Of a DNA stretch of 64,000 nucleotides, positions 1,775-58,735 are shown piece after piece (position 1 is the first letter of the stretch; each line of letters starts with the position of its first letter). Origin of the DNA: Minisyncoccota bacterium (GTDB lineage Bacteria > Patescibacteriota > Minisyncoccia > Phycocordibacterales > CAJBRS01). A program made the position numbers and the translations under genes. Below the pieces are notes generated by a model. It did no database searches, was not told the DNA's origin, and was given only the letters and a program-made list of their open reading frames with translations. The stretch covers positions 96,778-160,777 of the forward strand of contig DASRDX010000012.1 of assembly GCA_035652395.1 (NCBI GenBank), read 5' to 3'.

Positions 1775-4231
1775 TTACTTTTCCATCTCTCCCCAATTGT
1801 TCCCCGCGGAGGCGTGGGCAACGATGGGTACTCCTTTAGTTTCCTTTGGTGAGATAATTCCTTCCATGATTTCCTTAATTTTTTTGGAAAGCTCGTCAAC
1901 CAATTCATTTTTAATCTCGTAAATTAATTCGTCATGCACCTGAAGCAGTAAATAAACTTTTTCTTCCCATTTGGAGCTTTTAATGTGCTCGTCAATCTGG
2001 CGCATTGCTATCTTAATAAGGTCAGCTTGGGTGCCCTGAATTGGCGCATTGATCGCCATCCGCTCGGCTTCTGCTTTGATGTAAGGCAGTTTGGAATTGA
2101 TGCCGGCAAAATAACGACGGCGGCCAAAAAGAGTCTCGGTGTATCCTAGCCGGGCCGCATCGGCCTTCACCTTATCCAAATACCAGGCTAGACCGGAATA
2201 ATTTCTAAAGTATTCATTGTAAAATTTCTGGGCCTCGTCTCGGGTGCCCCCTAGATTGGCCTTGAGAGCATTCACTCCCATACCATATAAAATCCCGAAG
2301 TTGATAACTTTGGCTTGTCGACGCATTTCGGCATTCACCATCTCAAGGGGCACGTTAAAAACTTGGGCTGCTACGGCCGTGTGAACATCCTGATTGGTTT
2401 TAAAAATTTCGATTAATTTGGGATCACCGGAAAGAATGGCGGCAATACGCAATTCTATTTGAGAATAATCAAAGGCCACTAATTTGTAACCTTTGTCCGC
2501 AATAAAAGCTTTCCGAATGTTGCGCCCAAGCTCGGATTTAATTGGGATATTCTGGAGATTAGGATTGTTCGAAGACATGCGTCCAGTAGCGGCGCCTGTT
2601 TGAGAAAAAGTTGAATGAAGGCGATCGTCTTCGTCAGCCAAAACCGGAATAGTATCAATATAGGTGGAGAGTAATTTCTGGAGTTCGCGATGCTTTAATA
2701 TCAAGCCGATGATCGGATGAAGCTCCTGCATTTTTAGAAGCTCTGATTCCCGAGTGGAGCGGGCTCCGCCGGCAGTCTTTTTAATATTTTTAGCTTTCAA
2801 AGCCAACTTGTCGTAGAGAACCGTGCCGAGCTGCTTTGGCGAATTAATATTGAATTCTTCACCGGCTTCCTTCCAAATTTTCTTCTCAAGTTTGGCCAGC
2901 TCCTGATGATAGCTTTTGCTTAAGTCATATAAATAAGTGCGATTGATTTTTATCCCGCGTTTCTCCATTCGTTCAATAATCGGAATGAGTGGCAACTCAA
3001 TTTCTTCATAAACCTTTTCCAGTTTTCTTTTGCGGATTTCGCCGAGAATAATTTCGGCGGCTTTGGCGAAGGACTTGGTCTTAGCGAAATGAAGAACGTC
3101 ATCAAGAGTCGGATTAGTGAGATTGGAATCGAGAACCCATAGAGCCAAAGTCACCCTTTTTAGTTCGGCCCGATCGATCGGTTCGTCAAAAGCTTCATTG
3201 AGACTTGATTGAGTTGGTGATGAAGAGGAAGGAGCATCTGTTGGATCATAAGTGGCTGATTGAGATTTTGTTTGGCCACCTTTCGGACCCCCACTTAAAA
3301 CCTCCTTTAATCGAGCACTTAATGTTCTGAATTCCAGATCGCGGAAAAGGGTTTCGATTTTATCCAGATCGACTGATTCTGTCCAAGTTTTTGACGGCAA
3401 CTTAAATTCAATTGGAGCGTCTCGTCGAATCGTGGCCAGCATCTTGCTAAAGAGGGCTTCCTCTTTTCCTTCCCTTAAAAGCTTGATAATGCGATCAGTT
3501 AAACCGGCTTTTTTAAATTTCTCATCGCCTTGTTCCAGTTCTTTATAAATATTTTCAACGGTGCCGAATTGCTGAATTAAAATGGTGGCGGTTTTTTCGC
3601 CAATGCCGGCAATTCCGATAATATTGTCCGACGGATCTCCGCGTAATCCTTTGTAGTCTGCTAGAAGTGCTGGCGGAAAGCCGAAGCGCTCTTCCACTTT
3701 TTTCTGGTCGTACATGACTGTATCCGTCAGTCCCTTGCGTAGAGTGAAAACTTGTACATCTTTCCCTCTTACTAGCTGCAAAGTGTCCATGTCGCCCGAA
3801 GCAATGACGACGCAAACTCCAGAAATATCTTTGACTTCCTCAACGATAGTGCCGATGACGTCGTCGGCTTCAAAACCGGCCTTATCATAAATAGGAATAT
3901 TAAAAGCTTCAAAAATATCTCGCGAACGAGTCATTTGGGAAACCAGCTCCGGATCGGCTTTTTTACGCCCGGCTTTGTAAGCTTCATAAGCCTGGTGTCG
4001 ATAGGTCGGTTCAGGCAAATCATAAGCCGCTATTAAATAATCCGGTTTCAAATCCTGGATGATACGAATGAGCATGGTGGAAATTCCATACAGTCCGCCA
4101 GTCGCTTCCCCTTTGCTGGAAGCAAAATCCGGCAGCGCGTGATAGGCCCGATGTAAGATGGCGTGCGCATCCAACAAAACCAGTCGCTGGTTTTCCATTT
4201 TCACTTTTTCCGTTTTCGGAGCTTTTGGCAT
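1775..4231 (-). CDS. polA: DNA polymerase I (5'-3' exonuclease domain plus polymerase domain)
   Basis: 818 aa. N-terminal FEN-like exonuclease, polymerase motifs KVINFGILYGMG and QVHDELIYE. Confidence 0.9.
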   Translation of the reverse strand: MPKAPKTEKVKMENQRLVLLDAHAILHRAYHALPDFASSKGEATGGLYGISTMLIRIIQDLKPDYLIAAYDLPEPTYRHQAYEAYKAGRKKADPELVSQMTRSRDIFEAFNIPIYDKAGFEADDVIGTIVEEVKDISGVCVVIASGDMDTLQLVRGKDVQVFTLRKGLTDTVMYDQKKVEERFGFPPALLADYKGLRGDPSDNIIGIAGIGEKTATILIQQFGTVENIYKELEQGDEKFKKAGLTDRIIKLLREGKEEALFSKMLATIRRDAPIEFKLPSKTWTESVDLDKIETLFRDLEFRTLSARLKEVLSGGPKGGQTKSQSATYDPTDAPSSSSPTQSSLNEAFDEPIDRAELKRVTLALWVLDSNLTNPTLDDVLHFAKTKSFAKAAEIILGEIRKRKLEKVYEEIELPLIPIIERMEKRGIKINRTYLYDLSKSYHQELAKLEKKIWKEAGEEFNINSPKQLGTVLYDKLALKAKNIKKTAGGARSTRESELLKMQELHPIIGLILKHRELQKLLSTYIDTIPVLADEDDRLHSTFSQTGAATGRMSSNNPNLQNIPIKSELGRNIRKAFIADKGYKLVAFDYSQIELRIAAILSGDPKLIEIFKTNQDVHTAVAAQVFNVPLEMVNAEMRRQAKVINFGILYGMGVNALKANLGGTRDEAQKFYNEYFRNYSGLAWYLDKVKADAARLGYTETLFGRRRYFAGINSKLPYIKAEAERMAINAPIQGTQADLIKIAMRQIDEHIKSSKWEEKVYLLLQVHDELIYEIKNELVDELSKKIKEIMEGIISPKETKGVPIVAHASAGNNWGEMEK

Positions 4232-4672
4232 TTAATACTTTATTTCTCGAGTATTTTCGTCAATAAACTTAAAATAAATCTTTTGATAATTTTTGGGCAA
4301 GGCGCTTTCCACGTTCTTCGACCATTCTATTAATACCAGATTTTTGGGGTCAGCTGCTATTTCCTCAAAATTCAACTTCATTAATTCTTCGCCGTTCTGG
4401 AGGCGGTAAGCATCAATATGAATTAATTTATTCCATGTTGGATCGCCCGCGAGTTCATAATTTTTTTCAATCACGAAAGTCGGACTAGTCATAGATTCTC
4501 TGATTCCTAAGAGCCGACCCAGTGCCTGAACGAACGTAGTTTTGCCGGCACCCAAATCGCCTATTAAACCGGCGATTTGGGCGCCTTCCTCTCCCTTCAG
4601 ATCCCTCAAATAATCTAAAAACTTTTCCGCCACCACTCCAGTTTCATCCAAACTTCTACTGTCAATCTTCAT
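4232..4672 (-). CDS. tsaE: tRNA threonylcarbamoyladenosine biosynthesis protein TsaE (YjeE)
   Basis: 146 aa. P-loop GDLGAGKTTFV and the family motif SPTFVIEKNYE. Confidence 0.8.
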   Translation of the reverse strand: MKIDSRSLDETGVVAEKFLDYLRDLKGEEGAQIAGLIGDLGAGKTTFVQALGRLLGIRESMTSPTFVIEKNYELAGDPTWNKLIHIDAYRLQNGEELMKLNFEEIAADPKNLVLIEWSKNVESALPKNYQKIYFKFIDENTREIKY

Positions 4673-5805: not shown

Positions 5806-7488
5806 ATGGTTCAATTCAACGAAGAAAAACAGAAGGCTCGCCTGGCCGACCTGAAAAAGAGCGAAGAGGAAAAGCTGGCGGAAATCTTATCTGGAAAATA
5901 CGGCCTTCAGTACATTGATCTTTCTCGCATCACCATTAACACAGATGCCCTGCGTCTTATTCCGGAAGAAGCCGCCCGTCGCAATAAAATGGCTGTTTTT
6001 GATGTGGTTAATAAAAATATTCGAGTGGCCATTCAGACCCCGAACAATCCTTCAACGACTGAAACTTTAAATGAACTAAAAGAAAAAGGTTACTTCCCGA
6101 TCGTCTACATGGTTTCAACTGAAAGTTTGGAAAAAGCCTGGAGTCGTTACAAAGATCTTTCCTTCGCTCTTGAAACAAAGGCCGGCTCTCTGGATATTTC
6201 CAATCAGGAAATTGAAACTTTTCTGCATCAGGTAAACAGCATGCAGGATATTCAAAAATTAATTAATGAGGCTCTGACAATTAAGAAAACTTATCGTATC
6301 TCGCGCGTTTTAGTGATCATCATGGCCGGCGCGCTTTCCTTAAAAGCATCTGATGTTCATATCGAACCGGAAGAAGACCATACTCGCTTGCGCTATCGTC
6401 TGGATGGAGTCTTGGTAGACGTGCTGAATTTTGATAATGAAACTTATAATCTGCTCCTTTCGCGCATTAAACTCCTTTCCAACCTGAAATTAAATATTAA
6501 AGAAAATGCCCAAGACGGTCGTTTCAGTATTTTAGTTTCGGGAGACGAGATCGAAGTGCGTACTTCCGTTTTACCCGGAAATTATGGCGAGTCCATCGTG
6601 CTCCGTTTACTAAATCCAAAATCAATTACCGTGCCCCTTGAAGAACTGGGTATTGAACCGCGCCTTTTCAAAATTCTGGAGGCGGAAATTAACAAACCAA
6701 ACGGCATGATTCTAACCACCGGTCCGACCGGTTCCGGAAAGACCACCACCCTCTATTCTTTTATGCGCCGTATTTACAATCCGGAAATTAAAATTCTGAC
6801 TATTGAAGATCCCATCGAGTATCACTTGGCCGGCATTGTTCAGACGCAGGTAGAACCGAAGAAAGGCTACACCTTCGTTTCCGGATTAAGAGCGGCTCTT
6901 CGACAAGACCCTGATGTCATTATGGTTGGAGAAATTCGAGATGAAGAGACGGCCGAAATTGCCATTAATTCCTCTCTTACCGGTCACTTGGTATTCTCCA
7001 CCCTTCACACCAACGACGCCGCCGGTACTTATCCTCGTCTAATTGATCTCGGAGTAAATCCAAAAGTGCTCTCGTCGGCTATTAATGTTTCTATCGCTCA
7101 GCGTCTGGTGCGAGTGCTATGCCCTGTTTGTAAAAAAGAAGTGGCAGTTCCCGCCAGTACGAAAACCACTTTGGAAAAAGTAATTGCTTCAATTTATTTG
7201 GAAGAATTTCGAGTGCCGGTAAAAACTATGTATGAGCCGGTGGGCTGTTCGGAATGTCATCATCAAGGCTTTAAAGGCAGAATCGGAATTTTCGAAGCCA
7301 TTTTAACGGACGAAAAAATTGAACAAGTAGTCAAAGAAAACCCAAGCGAGCGAGAAATTAGAATCGCGGCGAGACCTCAAGGAATTTTAACTATGGAGCA
7401 GGACGGGGTGCTAAAAGTTTTGAAGGGCGTCACTTCTCTTTCCGAACTTGGCCGCGTGGTAAACATCGAACAGTATTTGAATCTGTAA
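5806..7488 (+). CDS. pilB: type IV pilus assembly / type II secretion ATPase (PilB/GspE family)
   Basis: 560 aa. N-terminal GSPII_E_N-like domain, Walker A GPTGSGKTTTL, Asp and His boxes, C-terminal tetracysteine CPVCKK...CSEC. Confidence 0.85.
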   Translation: MVQFNEEKQKARLADLKKSEEEKLAEILSGKYGLQYIDLSRITINTDALRLIPEEAARRNKMAVFDVVNKNIRVAIQTPNNPSTTETLNELKEKGYFPIVYMVSTESLEKAWSRYKDLSFALETKAGSLDISNQEIETFLHQVNSMQDIQKLINEALTIKKTYRISRVLVIIMAGALSLKASDVHIEPEEDHTRLRYRLDGVLVDVLNFDNETYNLLLSRIKLLSNLKLNIKENAQDGRFSILVSGDEIEVRTSVLPGNYGESIVLRLLNPKSITVPLEELGIEPRLFKILEAEINKPNGMILTTGPTGSGKTTTLYSFMRRIYNPEIKILTIEDPIEYHLAGIVQTQVEPKKGYTFVSGLRAALRQDPDVIMVGEIRDEETAEIAINSSLTGHLVFSTLHTNDAAGTYPRLIDLGVNPKVLSSAINVSIAQRLVRVLCPVCKKEVAVPASTKTTLEKVIASIYLEEFRVPVKTMYEPVGCSECHHQGFKGRIGIFEAILTDEKIEQVVKENPSEREIRIAARPQGILTMEQDGVLKVLKGVTSLSELGRVVNIEQYLNL

Positions 7489-50767: not shown

Positions 50768-50860
50768 ATAGTCTAACGAATGAAAATAACCTCTCTTTTG
50801 CCGAGAATTTGGTCCTCCAACCTCTCGGAAAAGAGAGGTTATTGAAATAAGTTAGACTAT
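50768..50860. other. roughly 40-bp imperfect long hairpin overlapping the cca stop codon
   Basis: ATAGTCTAAC...ATAACCTCTCTTTTGCCGAGA pairs with TCTCGGAAAAGAGAGGTTAT...GTTAGACTAT. Confidence 0.5.
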
Positions 50861-52350
50861 TGTACCCAATATTTCTTTCTTATTTCCTTCACTTCTTCTT
50901 CCTGTAATCTCTCCTTCCTTTCCTTTCCTTTCTCCCCTATCTTTTTTAATTGCTCCTCAGTTAATTTGCTTAAATCTACTGCCCTCTCATAAAGGTGTTC
51001 TTTAGTATTCAAGGAAGGATCTTCCAAAACTTCTTCAAGCAAGGCATGCAAAATATAGCCAATCTTTGGTCCGGAAGGTAAGTTTGCCACCTCCATAATT
51101 TTACTGCCATCAATTTTTAACATCCCGACTGAAACCGGGTCATGCATCACCTCTTCAATCATTGATTTGTATTTTCTCAAGCGATACGGATCTTCTTTTG
51201 GTCTTCCCGTACCAATACGGTCGCAAATTCTGAGATTCATAAGATTCCAGACGTTCTCCTTACCCACATTTTTAAGCAAGCGTCTGACAGCCGACAAAGT
51301 AATTTGGTCGGGATCGGAGAAAAACATGTGCCAACGAATTAGTTTAGTTACTTCTTCAATTAATTTATTCGGAAAGCGTAAATCATTTAAAATTTTAGCA
51401 GCCACACGAGCTCCCACTACATCATGCCCGTGAAAAGTCCAGTCTTTTTTCTCGTTTGACCAGCGTCTTGATTGAGGCTTGGCAATATCATGAAGCAATG
51501 CGGCTAACCGAATTTCTAGCGACCACCCCTTGTCCGCCGCCGCTTGCAAGCTTTTTAATAAGTGTTCAAAGACGTCATAAGCGTGGGCTTGGTTTTGTTC
51601 AATTCCGGAAGCTTTCTCCAGTTCAGGGATAATAAACTTCAACACACCTAGGTTTTTAGCCGTTTTTAAGGCATCAGCCGGTTTAGCGGACATTAAAATT
51701 CTAACGAACTCTTCTCGTATTCTCTCTCGGGCAATGTTCTTCAGGAGACCCGCATCATTTTTAATAGCCTCTTCAGTTTCTGGGGCAATCTTAAATCCAA
51801 GTTCAGCTGAGAGTCTGATGGCTCGTAAAATTCTTAAACCATCTTCTTTGAATCTCTCATTCGGATCTCCTACGGTTCTAACAATTTTCTTTTCAATATC
51901 TTTTTGTCCTTGATAAAGGTCAACCACTTCCCCATCATAATTTTCTTTAGCTGTTGCAACAATTTTCAGAGCAATGGCATTGATAGTAAAATCCCGTCTC
52001 TTTAGATCATCTTCCAGATTTTGACTAAATGTAACGGAGTCAGGATGTCGATTATCCGAATAAGTGGCTTCCAGACGATACGGAGTCATCTCCACCACTT
52101 TCAAAGTTTCATCCTCCGCTTCTTCATTAACTACTCCAACTGTTCCATAATCGTTTTCATAGAAGGTTTTATCGAAATTTTGAATGATCTCTTCGGGCGT
52201 GGCGTTTGTAGTAACATCCCAGTCTTTCGGCTTGCGCTCCAAAAGCAAATCACGAACACAGCCACCGATTAAATAGGCTTCAAAACCAGCCTCTTCTAAT
52301 TTCCTAGTTATTCGTGAAACTTCCGGCGGAATGGAGAATTTTCTAGACAT
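50857..52350 (-). CDS. cca: CCA-adding tRNA nucleotidyltransferase with an HD domain
   Basis: 497 aa. N-terminal GGCVRDLLL...DWDV nucleotidyltransferase domain and an HD domain (LLHDIAKP). Confidence 0.85.
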   Translation of the reverse strand: MSRKFSIPPEVSRITRKLEEAGFEAYLIGGCVRDLLLERKPKDWDVTTNATPEEIIQNFDKTFYENDYGTVGVVNEEAEDETLKVVEMTPYRLEATYSDNRHPDSVTFSQNLEDDLKRRDFTINAIALKIVATAKENYDGEVVDLYQGQKDIEKKIVRTVGDPNERFKEDGLRILRAIRLSAELGFKIAPETEEAIKNDAGLLKNIARERIREEFVRILMSAKPADALKTAKNLGVLKFIIPELEKASGIEQNQAHAYDVFEHLLKSLQAAADKGWSLEIRLAALLHDIAKPQSRRWSNEKKDWTFHGHDVVGARVAAKILNDLRFPNKLIEEVTKLIRWHMFFSDPDQITLSAVRRLLKNVGKENVWNLMNLRICDRIGTGRPKEDPYRLRKYKSMIEEVMHDPVSVGMLKIDGSKIMEVANLPSGPKIGYILHALLEEVLEDPSLNTKEHLYERAVDLSKLTEEQLKKIGEKGKERKERLQEEEVKEIRKKYWVQ

Positions 52351-54077: not shown

Positions 54078-54956
54078 GTGAAAATCGTTACTCATAGTGG
54101 GAGTTTTCATCAAGACGAACTCTTTGCTTTAGCCGCTCTGCAGATGGTTTATCCTGATGCCGAGATTATTCGAACTCGTGATCCGGAAATTATTTCCAAG
54201 GCGGACATTGCTGTTGATATTGGCGGCATTTATGATCCGGCCAGTAATCGTTTTGACCATCATCAGGAAGGGGGAGCGGGAAGACGCGGCAAGAATGGCA
54301 TGCCGTATGCTTCTTTCGGTTTGGTTTGGAAAAAATTTGGCCGGCAAATTTGCGATGGGCGCGCCGACATAGCTGATCTGGTGGATCGAAAAATGATTCA
54401 GGCTATCGATGCGGCCGACAACGGAGTGATGGTTTACGCCCCAGTTAATCGTGAGATTCAGCCGTATTTATTTGATAACTTCTTGAACGCCATTACTCCG
54501 ACGTGGCGCGAAGGTAAAAGTATTGATGATGCTTTCAAACAAATTTTGAGCATCGTGAGATTAGTGCTTGAAAAAGAAATTGAGAAAGCTAAATTCTTTT
54601 TTGAAGAAACTGAATTGGTCCGCCAAGCTTATCGGGAATCGGAAGACAAAAGAATTATTGTCCTTGACCACCCGTATCCTTGGAAGAGTGTTTTAACAAA
54701 ATATCCGGAACCGCTTTTTGTTATCTATCAGGATCAAAATACTGATGAATGGGTGATTATGGCAGTCAAGAAAGATCCGCGAGCTTTTATTTATCGAAAA
54801 CTTTTTCCGGCCAATTGGGCAGGGAAGATCGGCAAGCCTCTGGCAGATGAAATCGGCATTCCGGATGCGGTTTTTTGCCACAACAAACGCTTCATTGCCA
54901 AAGCCTGGTCCAAAGAAAGCGCTATAAAGATGGCTAAAATAGGCCTTAATACGTAG
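54078..54956 (+). CDS. MYG1-family (UPF0160) metal-dependent hydrolase/exonuclease
   Basis: 292 aa. GTG start, THSGSFHQDE N-terminal motif, DIGG...FDHHQ, and an AADNG motif. Confidence 0.75.
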   Translation: MKIVTHSGSFHQDELFALAALQMVYPDAEIIRTRDPEIISKADIAVDIGGIYDPASNRFDHHQEGGAGRRGKNGMPYASFGLVWKKFGRQICDGRADIADLVDRKMIQAIDAADNGVMVYAPVNREIQPYLFDNFLNAITPTWREGKSIDDAFKQILSIVRLVLEKEIEKAKFFFEETELVRQAYRESEDKRIIVLDHPYPWKSVLTKYPEPLFVIYQDQNTDEWVIMAVKKDPRAFIYRKLFPANWAGKIGKPLADEIGIPDAVFCHNKRFIAKAWSKESAIKMAKIGLNT

Positions 54957-55052: not shown

Positions 55053-55763
55053 TTGATACCCAAATTTAATCTTAAGGGCAGCATTCCAGCGCTGGTCTTA
55101 AAATGGTCAGTGACTAATCCTCACCTTGTACCGCTTGGAGCAGTTTTTACTCGCAGTAAGAGTAAAAAAGATTATCAGAAACGGGCCGAAAGGGTTTTCG
55201 GTATATCCACCGTCGATGAAATAGGAAACTCTGGATTTGAATTGCCGGAAACCAAAATCGGACGAGTCGGAATTCAGAGCGTAGAGAATCTGATGAATCG
55301 ATTTTTACGGATCGAACATCGGATCAGCAGGAAACCCGATCACATTCCCAAGCAGGCCATCTTGTTTTTCTTTGTTCTCAATGAAAAAGATTTACAGGAG
55401 GCTGTGCCCATGTCCGGCGAGCACGCTCAAGCCCTCAGATGGTTTGCCATGCAAACCTTCGAAGGCTGTCGAATCTGGAACAATGGTGAACGAGTAGTCA
55501 TTGATTTGGTCAAGCGTTTGCCGGAACAGAAAGCGGTGCACTGTATGGATTTACGTTCAGACAGTAAGCATGGCTGGCAGCTCTGTTGGGTGCCTCTTCC
55601 GGAAGGTGTTAATCCCGCGCCCACAGCGACACATCCAAAATTCCTGACAAAGGAGTATGTGGATTATCAACGGCGGGCAGAGGAAAAACTTTTCCAGCAA
55701 ACTCGCAGGTCTCTCGAAAACCTGTTTGAGGTTGCCGACAGGCAAGTGGCTATGGCCAGATAA
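55053..55763 (+). CDS. hypothetical protein encoded in a GC-rich segment (TTG start)
   Basis: 236 aa. TATAAT plus AAGGAG ribosome-binding site 8 nt ahead of the TTG; GC about 50%; followed by a strong terminator. No motifs recognised. Confidence 0.45.
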   Translation: MIPKFNLKGSIPALVLKWSVTNPHLVPLGAVFTRSKSKKDYQKRAERVFGISTVDEIGNSGFELPETKIGRVGIQSVENLMNRFLRIEHRISRKPDHIPKQAILFFFVLNEKDLQEAVPMSGEHAQALRWFAMQTFEGCRIWNNGERVVIDLVKRLPEQKAVHCMDLRSDSKHGWQLCWVPLPEGVNPAPTATHPKFLTKEYVDYQRRAEEKLFQQTRRSLENLFEVADRQVAMAR

Positions 55764-55769
55764 AAATTC

Positions 55770-55802
55770 AAACCGCGCGGAAACGAAGTTTCCGCGCGGT
55801 TT
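55770..55802 (+). terminator. 15-bp hairpin AAACCGCGCGGAAAC-gaa-GTTTCCGCGCGGTTT followed by TTT
   Basis: Perfect stem plus T-tract. Confidence 0.8.
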
Positions 55803-55835
55803 TTGCTTAAGCGTTTATATAATATAATCAACAGA

Positions 55836-57176
55836 ATGTTATCTCCACGCAGTATCGTCTATAGCGGCATTTTTCTCACGGAAGATTCAAGAAAAATTCT
55901 TTTAGAAAAAATACGGCCTCTATACGAAAATATTTTTGCTCATCATGTTACGGTCAAATATCGTCCCAACAGCGAGGAGATTTTTAATTTTCAGCCTGGA
56001 AAAGAATATGAACTGGAAATTGTCGGGGTTGCTTCTGACGGGAAAAGTCAGGCGGCGGTAATAAAAGGTTTTAAGACGGAAAGTGAGGTCACTCACGTCA
56101 CCATTTCAACTTTGGGGGAGACAAAGCCAAATTACTCAAAAGATCTTCTAAAGTCTGCCAAGATTGAAAATTTAAAACCGTTTAAAATAAAAGGGAAATA
56201 CGGCTTTTTTTGTGACGGACCATATTTTTTTGAATTCCCGACGTTTAATATTTCCACTGTTCAAATTCCTACCCGGCCGCAGCCCGATACAATTATCGCC
56301 CTGTTTCTTTTAAATGAATATGCTTCTTCTATTTTTCAAGGTATAGATTCGGCCGAGATTAAGTGTAATCCAATCTTTCCTAAGGATGAGACCTTTGAAA
56401 GCTTGCTTCAAAAAGGAATACTGACTATTGATTTTGAACAAAGCATATTCGATCATCATAATAAAGATTTTTCTACAGCTTCTGAAAGTGTTGCCGAGTG
56501 GTGCAATATCAGAAAAAATAAAGAGATTCAAAAACTTTTGGAATTTGCCAAACGCTCGGAAGAAGGTAAGGGGACTATTTCATCGGACGCTATTGATAAA
56601 ATGTTTGGTTTAGATGGCTTGATTATGGCCTTAAATCGCGTTCACTTTGCTGATCCAAAAGAAGTTTTTAGAATCGTGGAACCTATTTTAGCCGGTCATC
56701 TGAGGGATATAACTGAAAAATTAATTAATACCCCTGTGGTCTGGGCTGAATTACTAACCAATGGAAAAGGTAAAATAATTAAATGCCATACAAACATTGG
56801 TAATTCAAAAATTGCTTTTGCTGAGTCTGATAGTCAGAACTTGCCAGGGTTTTTACGGTCATACCAAGGCGAAAGATGTGACTTATTCGTTCAAAAACTC
56901 AGCTCTGGTCATATAAATATATTAAGCAAAGCCAACAATAACCTTGATCTATCCAAACTTGCCGGGATCATTAGACAAGCGGAAGCCTTAATACAAAAAC
57001 GACCAATCAATTCTGCAGATTTAAGACAGGCCGGCCGCCTTCCGGAAATTCCTGAATGGTATTATGACAAAATTACGAATTCTATTCTGAATGGTGGAAG
57101 AAACGTCGGAGATGTTAAACCAACTAGTATTTCATGGGGAAGTTTCGAAGCTCTAATTAAAAAATCTTTTGAATAG
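55836..57176 (+). CDS. two-domain protein: N-terminal 2H-phosphoesterase-like domain (two H-x-T-x motifs) and C-terminal divergent MYG1-like domain
   Basis: HHVTVKY and THVTIST lie about 57 aa apart. The C-terminal region aligns by eye to the upstream MYG1 paralog (ILTIDFEQSIFDHHNKDF against IAVDIGGIYDPASNRFDHHQ; ASESVAEW against ASFGLVWK) but lacks the HSGxFHxDE motif. The start is moved to the ATG at 55836 because a TATAAT sits at 55823-55828. Confidence 0.5.
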   Translation: MLSPRSIVYSGIFLTEDSRKILLEKIRPLYENIFAHHVTVKYRPNSEEIFNFQPGKEYELEIVGVASDGKSQAAVIKGFKTESEVTHVTISTLGETKPNYSKDLLKSAKIENLKPFKIKGKYGFFCDGPYFFEFPTFNISTVQIPTRPQPDTIIALFLLNEYASSIFQGIDSAEIKCNPIFPKDETFESLLQKGILTIDFEQSIFDHHNKDFSTASESVAEWCNIRKNKEIQKLLEFAKRSEEGKGTISSDAIDKMFGLDGLIMALNRVHFADPKEVFRIVEPILAGHLRDITEKLINTPVVWAELLTNGKGKIIKCHTNIGNSKIAFAESDSQNLPGFLRSYQGERCDLFVQKLSSGHINILSKANNNLDLSKLAGIIRQAEALIQKRPINSADLRQAGRLPEIPEWYYDKITNSILNGGRNVGDVKPTSISWGSFEALIKKSFE

Positions 57177-57470
57177 ATGTTTCAGAAAAACAAAGAAGAT
57201 TTTATTTGTGAGAAGTGCGGGCATGAAGTGAAAGGGACGGGATACACCAATCATTGTCCGAAATGCTTATGGAGCAAGCATGTGGATATTAATCCCGGGG
57301 ATCGTCTGAGTGAATGTGGAGGGATGATGGAGCCGGTACGGGTGGAGGGACGCACCGGCTCTTATGATTTTGTCCACCGATGTTTACGCTGTGGCTACGA
57401 AAAGAGAAACAAGGTTTCGCCCGAAGACGACTTTCAGAAAGTGATTGAAATTTCTAGGAAGGCTGATTAA
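57177..57470 (+). CDS. RNHCP-domain zinc-ribbon protein
   Basis: 97 aa. CEKCGHE...TNHCPKCLW...CLRCGYE. Its ATG directly abuts the stop codon of the upstream gene. Confidence 0.55.
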   Translation: MFQKNKEDFICEKCGHEVKGTGYTNHCPKCLWSKHVDINPGDRLSECGGMMEPVRVEGRTGSYDFVHRCLRCGYEKRNKVSPEDDFQKVIEISRKAD

Positions 57471-58735
57471 TGAGGTAGATAGTTAAACAAAGTGGATTCA
57501 GAATTTTTAAAATTATTTACCAAAGTGGCAATGTCGCGGTTTAAAAAGGAACTCAAGGTGTATCCAGTATGAGTTTTTAAGTCGACATTAATGTAATTGA
57601 GAGTAATGGCCTGAATATCCTGCTCTGAAGTATTACTGTTGTCTGGAACGGTGGTGGCGATCAGAGCAATCATTTGGCCGGCTTGATTGAGGATGCCCCC
57701 ACCAGAAGCTCCACGTTCAGCTAGAGAACTAGCTGTTGTTCTAATTAGATCTTTGCTGTTAGTGCCGGTGAAGGTGTAAGCGTCGATAACATTCATCAGG
57801 GCTGTTTGAATGGGTAGATTTTTCATAACGGTGGTGCCGGAAAAACTACTAGCTGGATAACCAACTCCTAAAATGGAGGTATTAGGTGAAAGGGAATTAA
57901 TAGATGTATCTAAAGAAAGATACGGAAAACTCCCGGGAACACTTCCGCCATTTATACCCGCCGTGACTGCTACTAAAGCGTAATCGCCAGCGCCGGTTTC
58001 TTGCGGCTGGTTCGCATTATTAATATTTGCTCCGTATTGGCGAAGCCATTCCTCTGAAATATGTACAAGAGACGCTTTGTATTGAGCCACGGCTGGAGAG
58101 CCACGACGAATAACACATTGTTTATTGGGATCCTGAAAATAATCGTCTAGGAGAAGGTGATCGGCCACATGAGCATTCGTTAAAATGATGCCTTTGGGAT
58201 CAATTATGACGCCACTGCCAGTCAGTATTTCAATAAGATTGCCGGATTGGCTGGTGCAATAAATATTGACGATGGCGGCCCGAGCCTTTTCATCCAGACT
58301 GGCATTGGCAGGAGGAGTTTGTGGTGGCGTAGCTGGAACTTGAGAAGGGAACGAAGAGGAGGCGGGTTGAATTGGAATGTTTGGAATGACTGGCACCGGA
58401 TTTGGGGCCGGAGTTTGAATGACTGGAATCTTTGGAGCGATCGGAGATTCAGTTTTGGGAACGGAAATTTTAGGAAAGGCCGGGACTTGAATAGCCAAAG
58501 TTGGCAACTTTTCTTTTTTGGTGGAAGTACTGGTGTTTGAAGGCCGGGTGCTCGAAGCATTAACACTAACAGCTGTTGGTACCAGAGGAGCGTAAGTAGA
58601 AAAAGAAGTAGTGGCCAATCGTTGTTCAAGACCGGGCAAACTGACTGACTTGTGAGTGGGTGGAGTGGTATAAGGAAAACCCAAAAAAGAACCGATTGAA
58701 AGAAGAATGGCGATGAGGGGAGAGAGAGGGTTCAT
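57467..58735 (-). CDS. secreted trypsin-like (S1) serine protease with a Pro-rich N-terminal region
   Basis: 422 aa. Transmembrane/signal region, ILTNAHV (His), GASGGG (Ser motif). Confidence 0.6.
   Translation of the reverse strand: MNPLSPLIAILLSIGSFLGFPYTTPPTHKSVSLPGLEQRLATTSFSTYAPLVPTAVSVNASSTRPSNTSTSTKKEKLPTLAIQVPAFPKISVPKTESPIAPKIPVIQTPAPNPVPVIPNIPIQPASSSFPSQVPATPPQTPPANASLDEKARAAIVNIYCTSQSGNLIEILTGSGVIIDPKGIILTNAHVADHLLLDDYFQDPNKQCVIRRGSPAVAQYKASLVHISEEWLRQYGANINNANQPQETGAGDYALVAVTAGINGGSVPGSFPYLSLDTSINSLSPNTSILGVGYPASSFSGTTVMKNLPIQTALMNVIDAYTFTGTNSKDLIRTTASSLAERGASGGGILNQAGQMIALIATTVPDNSNTSEQDIQAITLNYINVDLKTHTGYTLSSFLNRDIATLVNNFKNSESTLFNYLPH

Follow-up and report, generated by a model that had tools for sequence, protein, structure and literature searches.

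MYG1 proteins are conserved from bacteria to humans, and their real substrates are poorly defined. MYG1 acts as a 3'-5' RNA exonuclease, with an activity that depends on the DHH motif (PMC6582341). The CPD of Trl1 converts RNA ends with a 2',3'-cyclic-PO4 to 3'-OH,2'-PO4 ends (PMC11571804). Predicted relatives of both are joined in a single protein encoded in the stretch analysed here (the window), 64,000 nt of contig DASRDX010000012.1 from a Minisyncoccota bacterium. This 446-aa fusion ORF (55836-57176, plus strand) combines a 2H domain, a short linker and a DHH/DHHA1-fold MYG1-like module, and its product is probably a bifunctional phosphoesterase.

The public annotation of the fusion protein (P0001) was also 446 aa in length. 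A longer ORF beginning at a TTG at 55803 was rejected because this start falls inside a terminator-like hairpin, a 15-bp GC-rich structure (55770..55802) with T/A runs on both flanks that could serve in either direction. The hairpin stands between the gene pair formed by the fusion and a downstream RNHCP gene and a lineage-specific 236-aa ORF upstream, which was rejected as part of the same unit since only the closest relative (L001) has it and the hairpin intervenes. The limits of the pair are set by the upstream hairpin, a TAG|ATG junction and a convergent gene downstream. A TATAAT-rich stretch, tatataatataat (55817..55829, plus strand), ends ~7 nt 5' of the ATG; it is a possible -10 element, and the fusion mRNA may be leaderless or nearly so. 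An Rfam search of the region for hidden RNAs returned four tRNAs and nothing more, and GC content was ordinary when base composition was checked for a foreign island. Neither domain of the 446-aa protein was matched by Pfam (to E<=1) or NCBIfam models, and its AF2 model had a mean pLDDT of 89.9.

Residues ~8-125 (55857..56210, plus strand) were predicted to form a 2H phosphoesterase domain of minimal size, similar in type to CNPase and Trl1-CPD. The two HxT motifs that an earlier note on this DNA had read as 2H signatures were both present, HVTV at residues 37-40 (55944..55955) and HVTI at residues 87-90 (56094..56105), and both histidines and both threonines (H37, T39, H87 and T89) were unchanged throughout 21 aligned relatives. 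Because of this invariance, and because the region is predicted to fold as a 2H domain with the bilobed alpha+beta architecture, the HxT pair is not a chance match. Relatives scored 15-23.6 bits against PF08302 (tRNA_lig_CPD; cut-off 23), and a stand-alone short 2H module of 131 aa in another locus (L067) scored 26.5 bits. The long 2H forms found in other members of the family are true 2H domains (Pfam PF02834/PF13563, hhalign 96 %). Since hhalign between the short module and these long forms was not significant, the short form is assigned to 2H on the basis of structure prediction together with the borderline tRNA_lig_CPD matches in relatives. From the motifs and the model, the N-terminal 125 residues are predicted to be a cyclic phosphodiesterase, a 2H enzyme reduced in size but with the two catalytic HxT motifs preserved.

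The C-terminal module (residues ~138-446, 56247..57173, plus strand) had the two-domain DHH/DHHA1 fold in the predicted structure and belongs to an unannotated family, sister to MYG1, of 1,504 clusters at 50 % identity, nearly all from Patescibacteria and represented by no Pfam or NCBIfam model. An alignment by eye had placed the C-terminal two-thirds of the protein with MYG1, and hhalign agreed, giving 69 % with a narrow profile and 95.6 % with a broad one (E 1.3e-8 over 174 columns), against <=1.1 % for all controls (unrelated, reversed and 20 column-shuffled profiles). By this comparison the module shares ancestry with MYG1, its closest relative among those tested. Less sensitive searches were silent: the Pfam MYG1 model PF03690 matched 0 of 121 family members at E<=0.1, BLASTP of the fusion protein against the neighbouring MYG1 found nothing, and phmmer and hmmsearch runs against PDB sequences, whether with the protein or with the narrow and broad profiles, returned noise and did not reach the MYG1 entries. 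Solved MYG1 structures (PDB 24ah and related entries) were absent from both fold-search outputs. A profile comparison with two degenerate NrnA-like ORFs, a weak test, gave no signal to either the module family or MYG1. The domain assignments of the earlier note are supported, with hhalign linking the C-terminal region to MYG1 and Pfam identifying the RNHCP protein; Pfam gave no match to the 2H or MYG1 part of the 446-aa protein. Where they were located, divergent members of the family carried weak ChrB_C matches (E 0.01, 17 residues).

The active site of the module was compared with that of MYG1 through alignment equivalences rather than structural superposition. DHH motif III (FDHH, residues 205-208, 56448..56459) was invariant in 112 sequences. 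In place of motif I of MYG1, HSGxFHxDE, the protein had PTRPQPDT (residues 145-152, 56268..56291), and the loss of this metal site had been recognised correctly before. MYG1 H6 aligned with P145, H11 with Q149 and D13 with D151, so that motif I is cut down to Q149-x-D151, beside which R147 is conserved in the module family; motifs II (D199), III (DHH) and IV (D242) were present. Across 112-121 sequences D151, D199, DHH, R240, D251, D254 and a WYYD-ATNS-LNGG block were invariant, the last with W408, D411, N415, S416, N419 and G420 of the C-terminal lobe. By alignment, metal site 2 of DHH enzymes is represented in the module by the retained residues D151, D199, H207 and D242. The suggestion that the protein is an inactive paralogue is probably wrong, as the half of the DHH site that holds metal 2 does not vary across the family, though the 446-aa protein is somewhat relaxed and atypical within its family (D241S, D242E, GGG to EQS, E292I and E302V; position 242 is Asp in 99 % of members), and its activity could be altered or weakened. 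Since the metal-1 ligands are lost, the module may be a nuclease, a phosphatase or a mere binding module. Divergent paralogues without the DHH triad were seen adjoining canonical copies.

We evaluated the gene neighbourhood of the module in 80 species-representative loci. A 2H domain accompanied it in 30 of these, fused to it in 26 and encoded by a separate adjacent gene in 4 more, and 37 of 150 representatives at 50 % identity were fusions. Four fusion geometries occurred, with a short or a long 2H form at either the N or the C terminus. This repeated fusion and adjacency suggests a functional link between the 2H domain and the module. As ~60 % of family members had no 2H domain within 7 kb, the module would clearly also work alone. 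Canonical MYG1 was drawn into the same company: in the window a MYG1/UPF0160 gene (54078-54956, plus strand; PF03690, E 5e-72, 243 bits) lay 0.9 kb upstream of the fusion gene, in L001 a 2H gene was found 5 nt upstream of canonical MYG1, and in four loci outside the clade of the studied genome (L015, L017, L067 and L069) canonical MYG1 adjoined the module, making it a recurrent neighbour in independent contexts. Many module genes were situated in housekeeping surroundings, among ftsH, ribosomal protein genes and aminoacyl-tRNA synthetases.

Fusion to 2H domains has arisen in no fewer than four distinct ways, and this association suggests, as targets, RNA or nucleotides whose ends bear 2',3'-cyclic or 2'-phosphates. 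From domain identity and the logic of the fusion, we postulate with roughly even confidence that the enzyme carries out a two-step processing of 2',3'-cyclic-phosphate RNA ends, its two modules acting in sequence on the 3' ends of RNA or oligonucleotides. The 2H domain would open the cycle to leave a 2'-phosphate and a 3'-OH, like CNPase and Trl1-CPD, and the DHH-like module would then take off either the phosphate or the phosphorylated nucleotide at the end. The resulting clean 3'-OH could be used by exonucleases or nucleotidyltransferases. A more ambitious form of this proposal, which we consider doubtful, is that the associations of 2H domains with the module and with MYG1 represent a route of RNA 3'-end healing in two steps that had gone unrecognised, in which 2H opens the 2',3'-cyclic phosphate and a MYG1-type DHH enzyme removes the 2'-phosphorylated terminus. 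The family in these candidate phyla radiation (CPR) bacteria would then have a re-engineered site of one metal and an arginine, specialised for phosphate-bearing ends, and the physiological substrates of MYG1 generally, the human enzyme included, would be RNA ends with cyclic phosphates or 2'-phosphates.

Directly downstream of the fusion gene was a 97-aa RNHCP zinc-ribbon ORF (57177-57470, plus strand), whose identity as proposed in the earlier note was confirmed by Pfam PF12647 (E 1.6e-29, 102 bits, cut-off 24) and by the full signature C11, C14, N25-H26-C27-P28, C30, C47, C69 and C72. The ATG does abut the fusion-gene stop (...gaa TAG ATG ttt...), and because of this junction, and of a position directly downstream within a conserved housekeeping gene block, RNHCP is predicted to be co-transcribed with the fusion gene in the studied genome. 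Also present within 6 kb, as described before, were the canonical MYG1, a CCA-adding-type nucleotidyltransferase (50857-52350, minus strand) with PolyA_pol, PolyA_pol_RNAbd, HD and tRNA_NucTran2_2 domains, and four tRNA genes (52418, 52680, 53620 and 58858), none with CCA directly after. These neighbours had led to the proposal of a dedicated tRNA 3'-end repair or surveillance module, in which the fusion, the coupled RNHCP, MYG1 and the CCA enzyme act on tRNAs without encoded CCA. The abutting codons, the nearby CCA enzyme and tRNA genes and the recurrent adjacency of MYG1 favour it, as does the retention of the RNHCP pair at 0-50 nt in relatives (L001, L002, L037, L045, L054, L079, L088 and L093) whose modules are only 37-41 % identical to that of the 446-aa protein. 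However, RNHCP followed the module gene in just 5 of the 80 module loci, all within one extended synteny block that also holds a protease, HU and RNase Y. With one common block and no independent recurrence, the adjacency reflects shared gene order. The remaining 75 module loci lacked both RNHCP and the CCA enzyme, and a module stood upstream of RNHCP in 1 of 80 RNHCP loci, leaving 79 without it. In other genomes with the block the slot 5' of RNHCP was often empty or held unrelated genes, outside the block RNHCP had unrelated neighbours, and no RNHCP-module fusion was found among 150 representatives. The CCA-adding gene lies on the opposite strand 3.5 kb from the fusion gene, and together with the tRNAs it belongs to the same clade-specific synteny; the CCA enzyme and the tRNAs are absent from the ~70 other loci. 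RNHCP is therefore a clade-specific neighbour of the fusion gene, neither an obligate nor a dedicated partner. The pair is not kept as neighbours across relatives, an outcome that the earlier note had itself named as evidence against its idea and that largely applies; the neighbourhood statistics largely refute the tRNA proposal, and we regard it as improbable.

Alternatively, the fusion protein might serve nucleotide salvage, the 2H domain hydrolysing 2',3'-cNMPs from RNA breakdown and the DHH-like module dephosphorylating the 2'(3')-NMP in the manner of NrnA (pAp phosphatase). Such an enzyme would be a cytoplasmic analogue of the bifunctional CpdB, useful to CPR bacteria living on scavenged nucleotides. 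The domain evidence (2H plus a DHH-like module) fits salvage equally well, and CNPase, the best structural match, accepts 2',3'-cyclic nucleotides in free form. Some DHH enzymes are phosphatases or pyrophosphatases of nucleotides, and de novo nucleotide synthesis is generally absent from Patescibacteria, to which the module family is essentially confined; the housekeeping surroundings of many module genes also suit this role. Set against it, genes for a nucleoside kinase, phosphorylase or transporter did not recur beside the module family, most module members have no 2H partner, and MYG1, the closest relative tested, is an RNA exonuclease (PMC6582341), which leaves salvage unlikely. Catalytic death of the DHH-like module, which would then be an RNA-binding part or scaffold from which either the 2H domain or MYG1 receives substrates, is less probable still. 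Both motif-I histidines of MYG1 are lost, the 446-aa protein further carries D241S, D242E and the change of GGG to EQS, and divergent paralogues without the DHH triad sit beside canonical copies, but the invariance of D151, D199, DHH, R240, D251, D254 and the WYYD-ATNS-LNGG block in 112-121 sequences resembles that of an active site, and the ~60 % of members that stand alone have no catalytic partner near. Degradation of a cyclic-oligonucleotide messenger, with a 2H domain that acts as Acb1 does and a DHH part that works in the manner of GdpP/PggH or the DHH/DHHA1 ring nucleases, so as to turn off signalling of the CBASS or type III CRISPR kind, seems very improbable: PADLOC matched no gene of the region, CRISPR or CBASS genes were seen in none of the neighbourhoods examined, base composition is ordinary, and CNPase is far ahead of any other 2H match.

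Processing of 2',3'-cyclic-phosphate ends by the fusion enzyme, our preferred reading, would give Patescibacteria, whose set of enzymes is very small, a further predicted RNA-end-processing activity, and it provides a testable hypothesis on the ends on which the family acts. The analysis also brings to light a sizeable sister family of MYG1 that has had no Pfam or NCBIfam model. The locus further illustrates that abutting stop and start codons and a suggestive neighbourhood (CCA enzyme, tRNAs and MYG1) can come from clade-level synteny alone, and RNHCP is an extremely conserved small zinc protein in its own right. The impression that the architecture had not been described before was borne out to the extent that no Pfam, NCBIfam or PADLOC model covers it and a limited literature search found none.

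Compared with described systems, the RNHCP protein is a full-length, typical member of a family (PF12647) of unknown function, with all invariant residues present and nothing to set it apart from ~1,900 other clusters; its place 3' of the fusion gene is the exception and not the rule. Like CNPase and the CPD of fungal and plant tRNA ligases (PF08302), the short 2H domain has two HxT motifs, but it is only ~125 residues long (CNPase ~215, LigT ~180), its motifs are 50 residues apart whereas those of CNPase and LigT are ~80-100 apart, and, unlike tRNA ligase CPD, it has no linked kinase or ligase domain. Where the 2H form is long, the domain joined to either end of this DHH-like module is of the type of the bacterial LigT/ThpR 2H RNA 2',3'-cyclic phosphodiesterases (PF02834/PF13563), and the module's partnership would therefore be with 2H chemistry in general. 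The DxD motif I of NrnA, PggH, GdpP, RecJ and PPX1 is not found in the module, where the second Asp alone is retained, nor is there a clear copy of their GGGH motif, the nearest candidate being SSGH at 356-359 (G358 invariant). With MYG1 the module has in common a two-lobed DHH plus DHHA1-like architecture, profile-profile homology across the DHH domain and helical linker, the '...D-x-GG-x-FDHH' context, and acidic residues of motifs I (D151/D13), II (D199/D47) and IV (D242/D114). The two differ in motif I, where H6 and H11 of MYG1 give way to P145 and Q149 plus the conserved R147, and in the C-terminal lobe, which hhalign could not align and in which the module has its own invariant PEWYYD-ATNS-LNGG block as opposed to the FCHNKRF histidine of MYG1 (H344 in the human protein). 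The module family, unlike MYG1, is essentially confined to Patescibacteria, and many of its members are fused to a 2H domain.

The fusion gene ran on the forward strand from an ATG at 55836 to a stop codon at 57176 and encoded the same 446 residues as the public annotation, where they appear as a hypothetical protein of a Candidatus Paceibacterota MAG. The HVTV and HVTI motifs described in the earlier note lay at residues 37-40 and 87-90, and FDHH at residues 205-208. A TTG at 55803 was rejected as an alternative start, leaving the ATG as the credible one, because the TTG falls within a terminator-like hairpin. This perfect, GC-rich 15-bp hairpin (AAACCGCGCGGAAAC/GTTTCCGCGCGGTTT, 55770-55802), with A/T runs on both flanks, looks like a terminator for the ORF upstream. 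Together with tatataatataat, which comes after it (window 55770-55835) and ends ~7 nt 5' of the ATG, it suggests termination in both directions and, beyond that, a promoter whose mRNA would have no leader or almost none; neither the fusion gene nor the RNHCP gene had a visible Shine-Dalgarno-like sequence ahead of it. The upstream ORF (236 aa, 55053-55763) had no Pfam, NCBIfam or PADLOC match and was seen only in the window's closest relative (L001:4129-4782), where the public gene call is on the opposite strand (4045-4647, -), so that the two readings conflict and one must be in error. As the earlier note had it, the ATG of the 97-aa RNHCP gene (57177-57470; Pfam RNHCP, E 1.6e-29) immediately followed the TAG stop of the fusion gene, and the region also held a canonical MYG1 gene (54078-54956; PF03690, E 5e-72), a CCA-adding-type nucleotidyltransferase (50857-52350, -) and four tRNA genes, all without encoded CCA. 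A convergent Trypsin_2 protease gene (57467-58735, -) overlapped the RNHCP stop by 4 nt; its product has a hydrophobic segment, then a long Pro/Thr/Ser-rich N-terminal region. Given the upstream hairpin, the TAG/ATG junction and this convergent gene, the fusion gene and RNHCP are very probably co-transcribed in the window genome.

Pfam and NCBIfam searches of the whole window protein gave no match at any position. Its AlphaFold2 model was confident, at a mean pLDDT of 89.9 (input alignment of 112 sequences), Foldseek returned a match to CNPase (E 1.8e-5), and both His and both Thr of the HxT motifs were invariant in 21 aligned relatives. The closest relatives matched PF08302 (fungal tRNA-ligase CPD) near the second HxT at 15-23.6 bits (cut-off 23), and a stand-alone 131-aa copy of the short 2H module (L067:9940-10335) reached 26.5 bits, above the cut-off. 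These results make the N-terminal domain a reduced 2H phosphoesterase (about 125 aa, HxT spacing of 50 residues) of the CNPase/Trl1-CPD branch. The proposed 2H identity stood on fold, motifs and relatives, although the window protein itself lacks a Pfam match and profile-profile comparison found no link between the short 2H and the longer LigT-type 2H domains of other family members.

The C-terminal module (residues about 138-446) formed a separate family, with 112 close homologues in a word-indexed search and, in an exhaustive HMM search, 1,504 clusters (50 % identity) at E<=1e-3, 291 of them at E<=1e-30; no Pfam domain covered the module region in these 1,504 clusters. By name, nearly all source records were Patescibacteria/CPR (Paceibacteria, Taylorbacteria, Giovannonibacteria, 'Saccharibacteria'), and three were labelled Gammaproteobacteria. 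Strongly conserved motifs were PTRPQPDT, D-x-GGG-x-FDHH, ERDD-x-GKGTIS-D-LDRAFGLSGL, GFLRS, SSGH-N-ILT and PEWYYD-ATNS-LNGG. Against the MYG1 alignment, hhalign gave 69 % for the narrow family profile and 95.6 % (E 1.3e-8, 174 columns) for a broad 121-sequence profile, with controls at or below 1.1 % (unrelated profiles, the reversed MYG1 alignment and 20 column-shuffled MYG1 alignments). Judged by this result and its clean controls, the by-eye alignment to UPF0160/MYG1 in the earlier note was essentially correct, but none of the 121 family members reached the Pfam MYG1 model. Four touched Pfam DHH weakly, BLASTP found no match between the window protein and the MYG1 gene 0.9 kb upstream, and the C-terminal lobes of module and MYG1 failed to align. 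By sequence, the module is related to MYG1 yet is not MYG1 proper, a relationship detectable through profile-profile comparison and structure alone. Weak Pfam ChrB_C (PF09828) matches occurred in 12/121 divergent members (alignment A5, e.g., the protein P0463; best E 3.5e-7), the sole one located covering 17 N-terminal residues at E 0.01. C-terminal extensions of >100 aa, present in 8/150 representatives (P0460, P0461, P0463, P0466, P0404 and P0421 among them), matched no 2H, MYG1 or RNHCP profile, and two proteins of about 710 aa (P0037 and P0058) carried a 2H domain on each side of the module.

We classified architectures by HMMs at 80 species-representative loci. The window type, a short 2H followed by the module, occurred at 4, a long 2H followed by the module at 14, the module followed by a long 2H at 5 and by a short 2H at 3; a stand-alone module had a separate 2H gene alongside at 4 loci and no 2H within 7 kb at 50. 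Among representatives at 50 % identity, 37/150 were 2H fusions. By Pfam (PF02834/PF13563), the long forms are genuine 2H domains, N- and C-terminal versions matching each other at 96 %. That the pairing occurs in four fusion geometries and also as split genes argues strongly that the module and 2H chemistry work on the same substrates. Canonical MYG1 was another neighbour that recurred, at +1 or -2 of the module in four loci outside the window's clade (L015, L017, L067, L069), and in L001 a separate long-type 2H gene (2469-3068) lay 5 nt upstream of MYG1 (3074-3949), forming a 2H-MYG1 gene pair. No remnant of that 2H gene was found in the window, where its position is taken up by tRNA-Pro and a spacer of about 385 nt. 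At 13 loci (cluster 3; e.g., L005:4283-5230) a further neighbour encoded about 315 aa without a Pfam match, and in 11 of these it directly followed the module in the same orientation; FtsH was the +1 gene at 11 other loci.

RNHCP lay behind the module gene in the same orientation, after a 0-50 nt gap or with a short overlap, in the window, L001 (an uncalled ORF, 6216-6518), L002/L003/L006, L037, L045, L054, L079, L088 and L093. Every such locus with enough flank shared one extended block (ExoIII-like, CCA-adding enzyme(-), UPF0102, slot, RNHCP, trypsin-like protease(-), HU(-), RNase Y(-)), so the adjacency is gene order inherited in one clade, not several independent origins; the Trypsin_2 protease was conserved beside RNHCP in this block. 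The 2H part of the slot gene was short and N-terminal in the window, L001 and L002, long and N-terminal in L054, C-terminal in L088, and absent in L037, L045 and L079. The RNHCP family comprised 1,936 clusters of proteins of about 100 aa, with block genes as the commonest neighbours. Conservation of the pair as a unit, which the earlier note named as a check, was not borne out: RNHCP came after the module at 5/80 module loci, and the module was present at 1/80 RNHCP loci (metagenomes; 51/80 with at least 1 kb upstream). The UPF0102-RNHCP interval of block-bearing loci was empty or held unrelated genes, among which the broad family HMM found no divergent module members; RNHCP neighbours were unrelated in Chloroflexi, Microgenomates and other Paceibacteria, and no RNHCP-module fusion occurred among 150 representatives. 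RNHCP is a constant part of a housekeeping block; the slot beside it varies in content, and the module is one of its occupants. RNHCP proteins shared 60-70 % identity across distant CPR lineages, with seven Cys, E7, T24-N25-H26, H35, D37, P40-G41-D42-R43 and N78 invariant; neither a solved homologue nor, in the literature searched, any biological account was found.

In the hhalign alignment, MYG1 H6 and H11 corresponded to family P145 and Q149, presumably the counterparts of metal-1 ligands H9 and D13 of family II pyrophosphatase. MYG1 D13, D47, D60-H61-H62 and D114 corresponded to family D151, D199, D206-H207-H208 and D242, which we take to be the counterparts of metal-2 ligands D15, D75, H97 and D149, respectively. 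All metal-2 counterparts were kept, and the metal-1 positions were substituted, with a nearly invariant R147 in the same loop. Solved MYG1 structures (24ah and others) exist, but the fold searches did not return them. At several positions that are otherwise conserved, the window protein deviated together with its 71 % relative (D241S, D242E, GGG to EQS before FDHH, E292I, E302V); the replacement by Glu at 242 is conservative, and some loss or shift of activity is possible in this lineage. Module paralogues of about 350 aa (cluster 2, 16/80 loci; L012:1917-2975, L013:3449-4504, L072:6143-7198, L078:2157-3209) lay one or two genes upstream of a canonical copy and in the same orientation. The L012 paralogue, at least, lacked the DHH triad ('PIDIGDRKYH' in place of FDHH) and kept the C-terminal WYY...LINGG...EPT block; such paralogues may serve as regulatory or partner subunits with no activity of their own. 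NrnA-like DHH proteins near RNHCP genes on two metagenome contigs (L132:3517-4689, L140:71-1243) had 'NWNGDN' in place of DxD motif I and are a further case of a CPR DHH protein whose motif I is reduced.

Other DHH enzymes include nanoRNases and 3'-phosphatases (NrnA). MYG1 acts on RNA as a 3'-5' exonuclease in a DHH-dependent manner (PMC6582341), and PMC11571804 describes CNPase/Trl1-CPD-branch enzymes as converting 2',3'-cyclic phosphate to 2'-phosphate/3'-OH. The data show which two folds are present, that residues of catalytic type are conserved, and that the module is repeatedly linked to 2H and to MYG1. On the activities above, the simplest model is that cyclic-phosphate RNA ends are cleaned up in two steps, for which we infer the reaction order: the 2H domain would open the 2',3'-cyclic phosphate, and the DHH-like module would then take off either the phosphate or the end nucleotide that bears it, regenerating a 3'-OH. 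Salvage of 2',3'-cNMPs by a CpdB-like logic would be attractive for nucleotide-auxotrophic CPR bacteria and is a lesser possibility. That the module is a catalytically inert binding module is improbable: with the metal-2 counterparts retained and the metal-1 ligands substituted, we read the site as remodelled rather than dead, so that the 'inactive' half of the suggestion 'inactive or re-purposed' is probably wrong. We consider a tRNA-specific module with RNHCP about equally doubtful, its members being neighbours through clade gene order with a variable slot occupant; the data support neither a dedicated two-component system nor a tRNA-repair module conserved together with the CCA enzyme. Breakdown of cyclic-oligonucleotide signals is very unlikely, as defence genes were absent from the neighbourhoods examined, PADLOC gave no match and composition was ordinary.

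The reading of the domains in the earlier note stands. The literature searched, with incomplete coverage of comparative surveys, gave no account of permuted 2H fusions, in keeping with the view that the architecture had not been described. The finding is not categorically new, because both folds are well known and the proposed chemistry is conventional. The module is, even so, a sizeable family without a curated model, and the main value of the finding is the testable lead it gives on what MYG1-type enzymes act upon.
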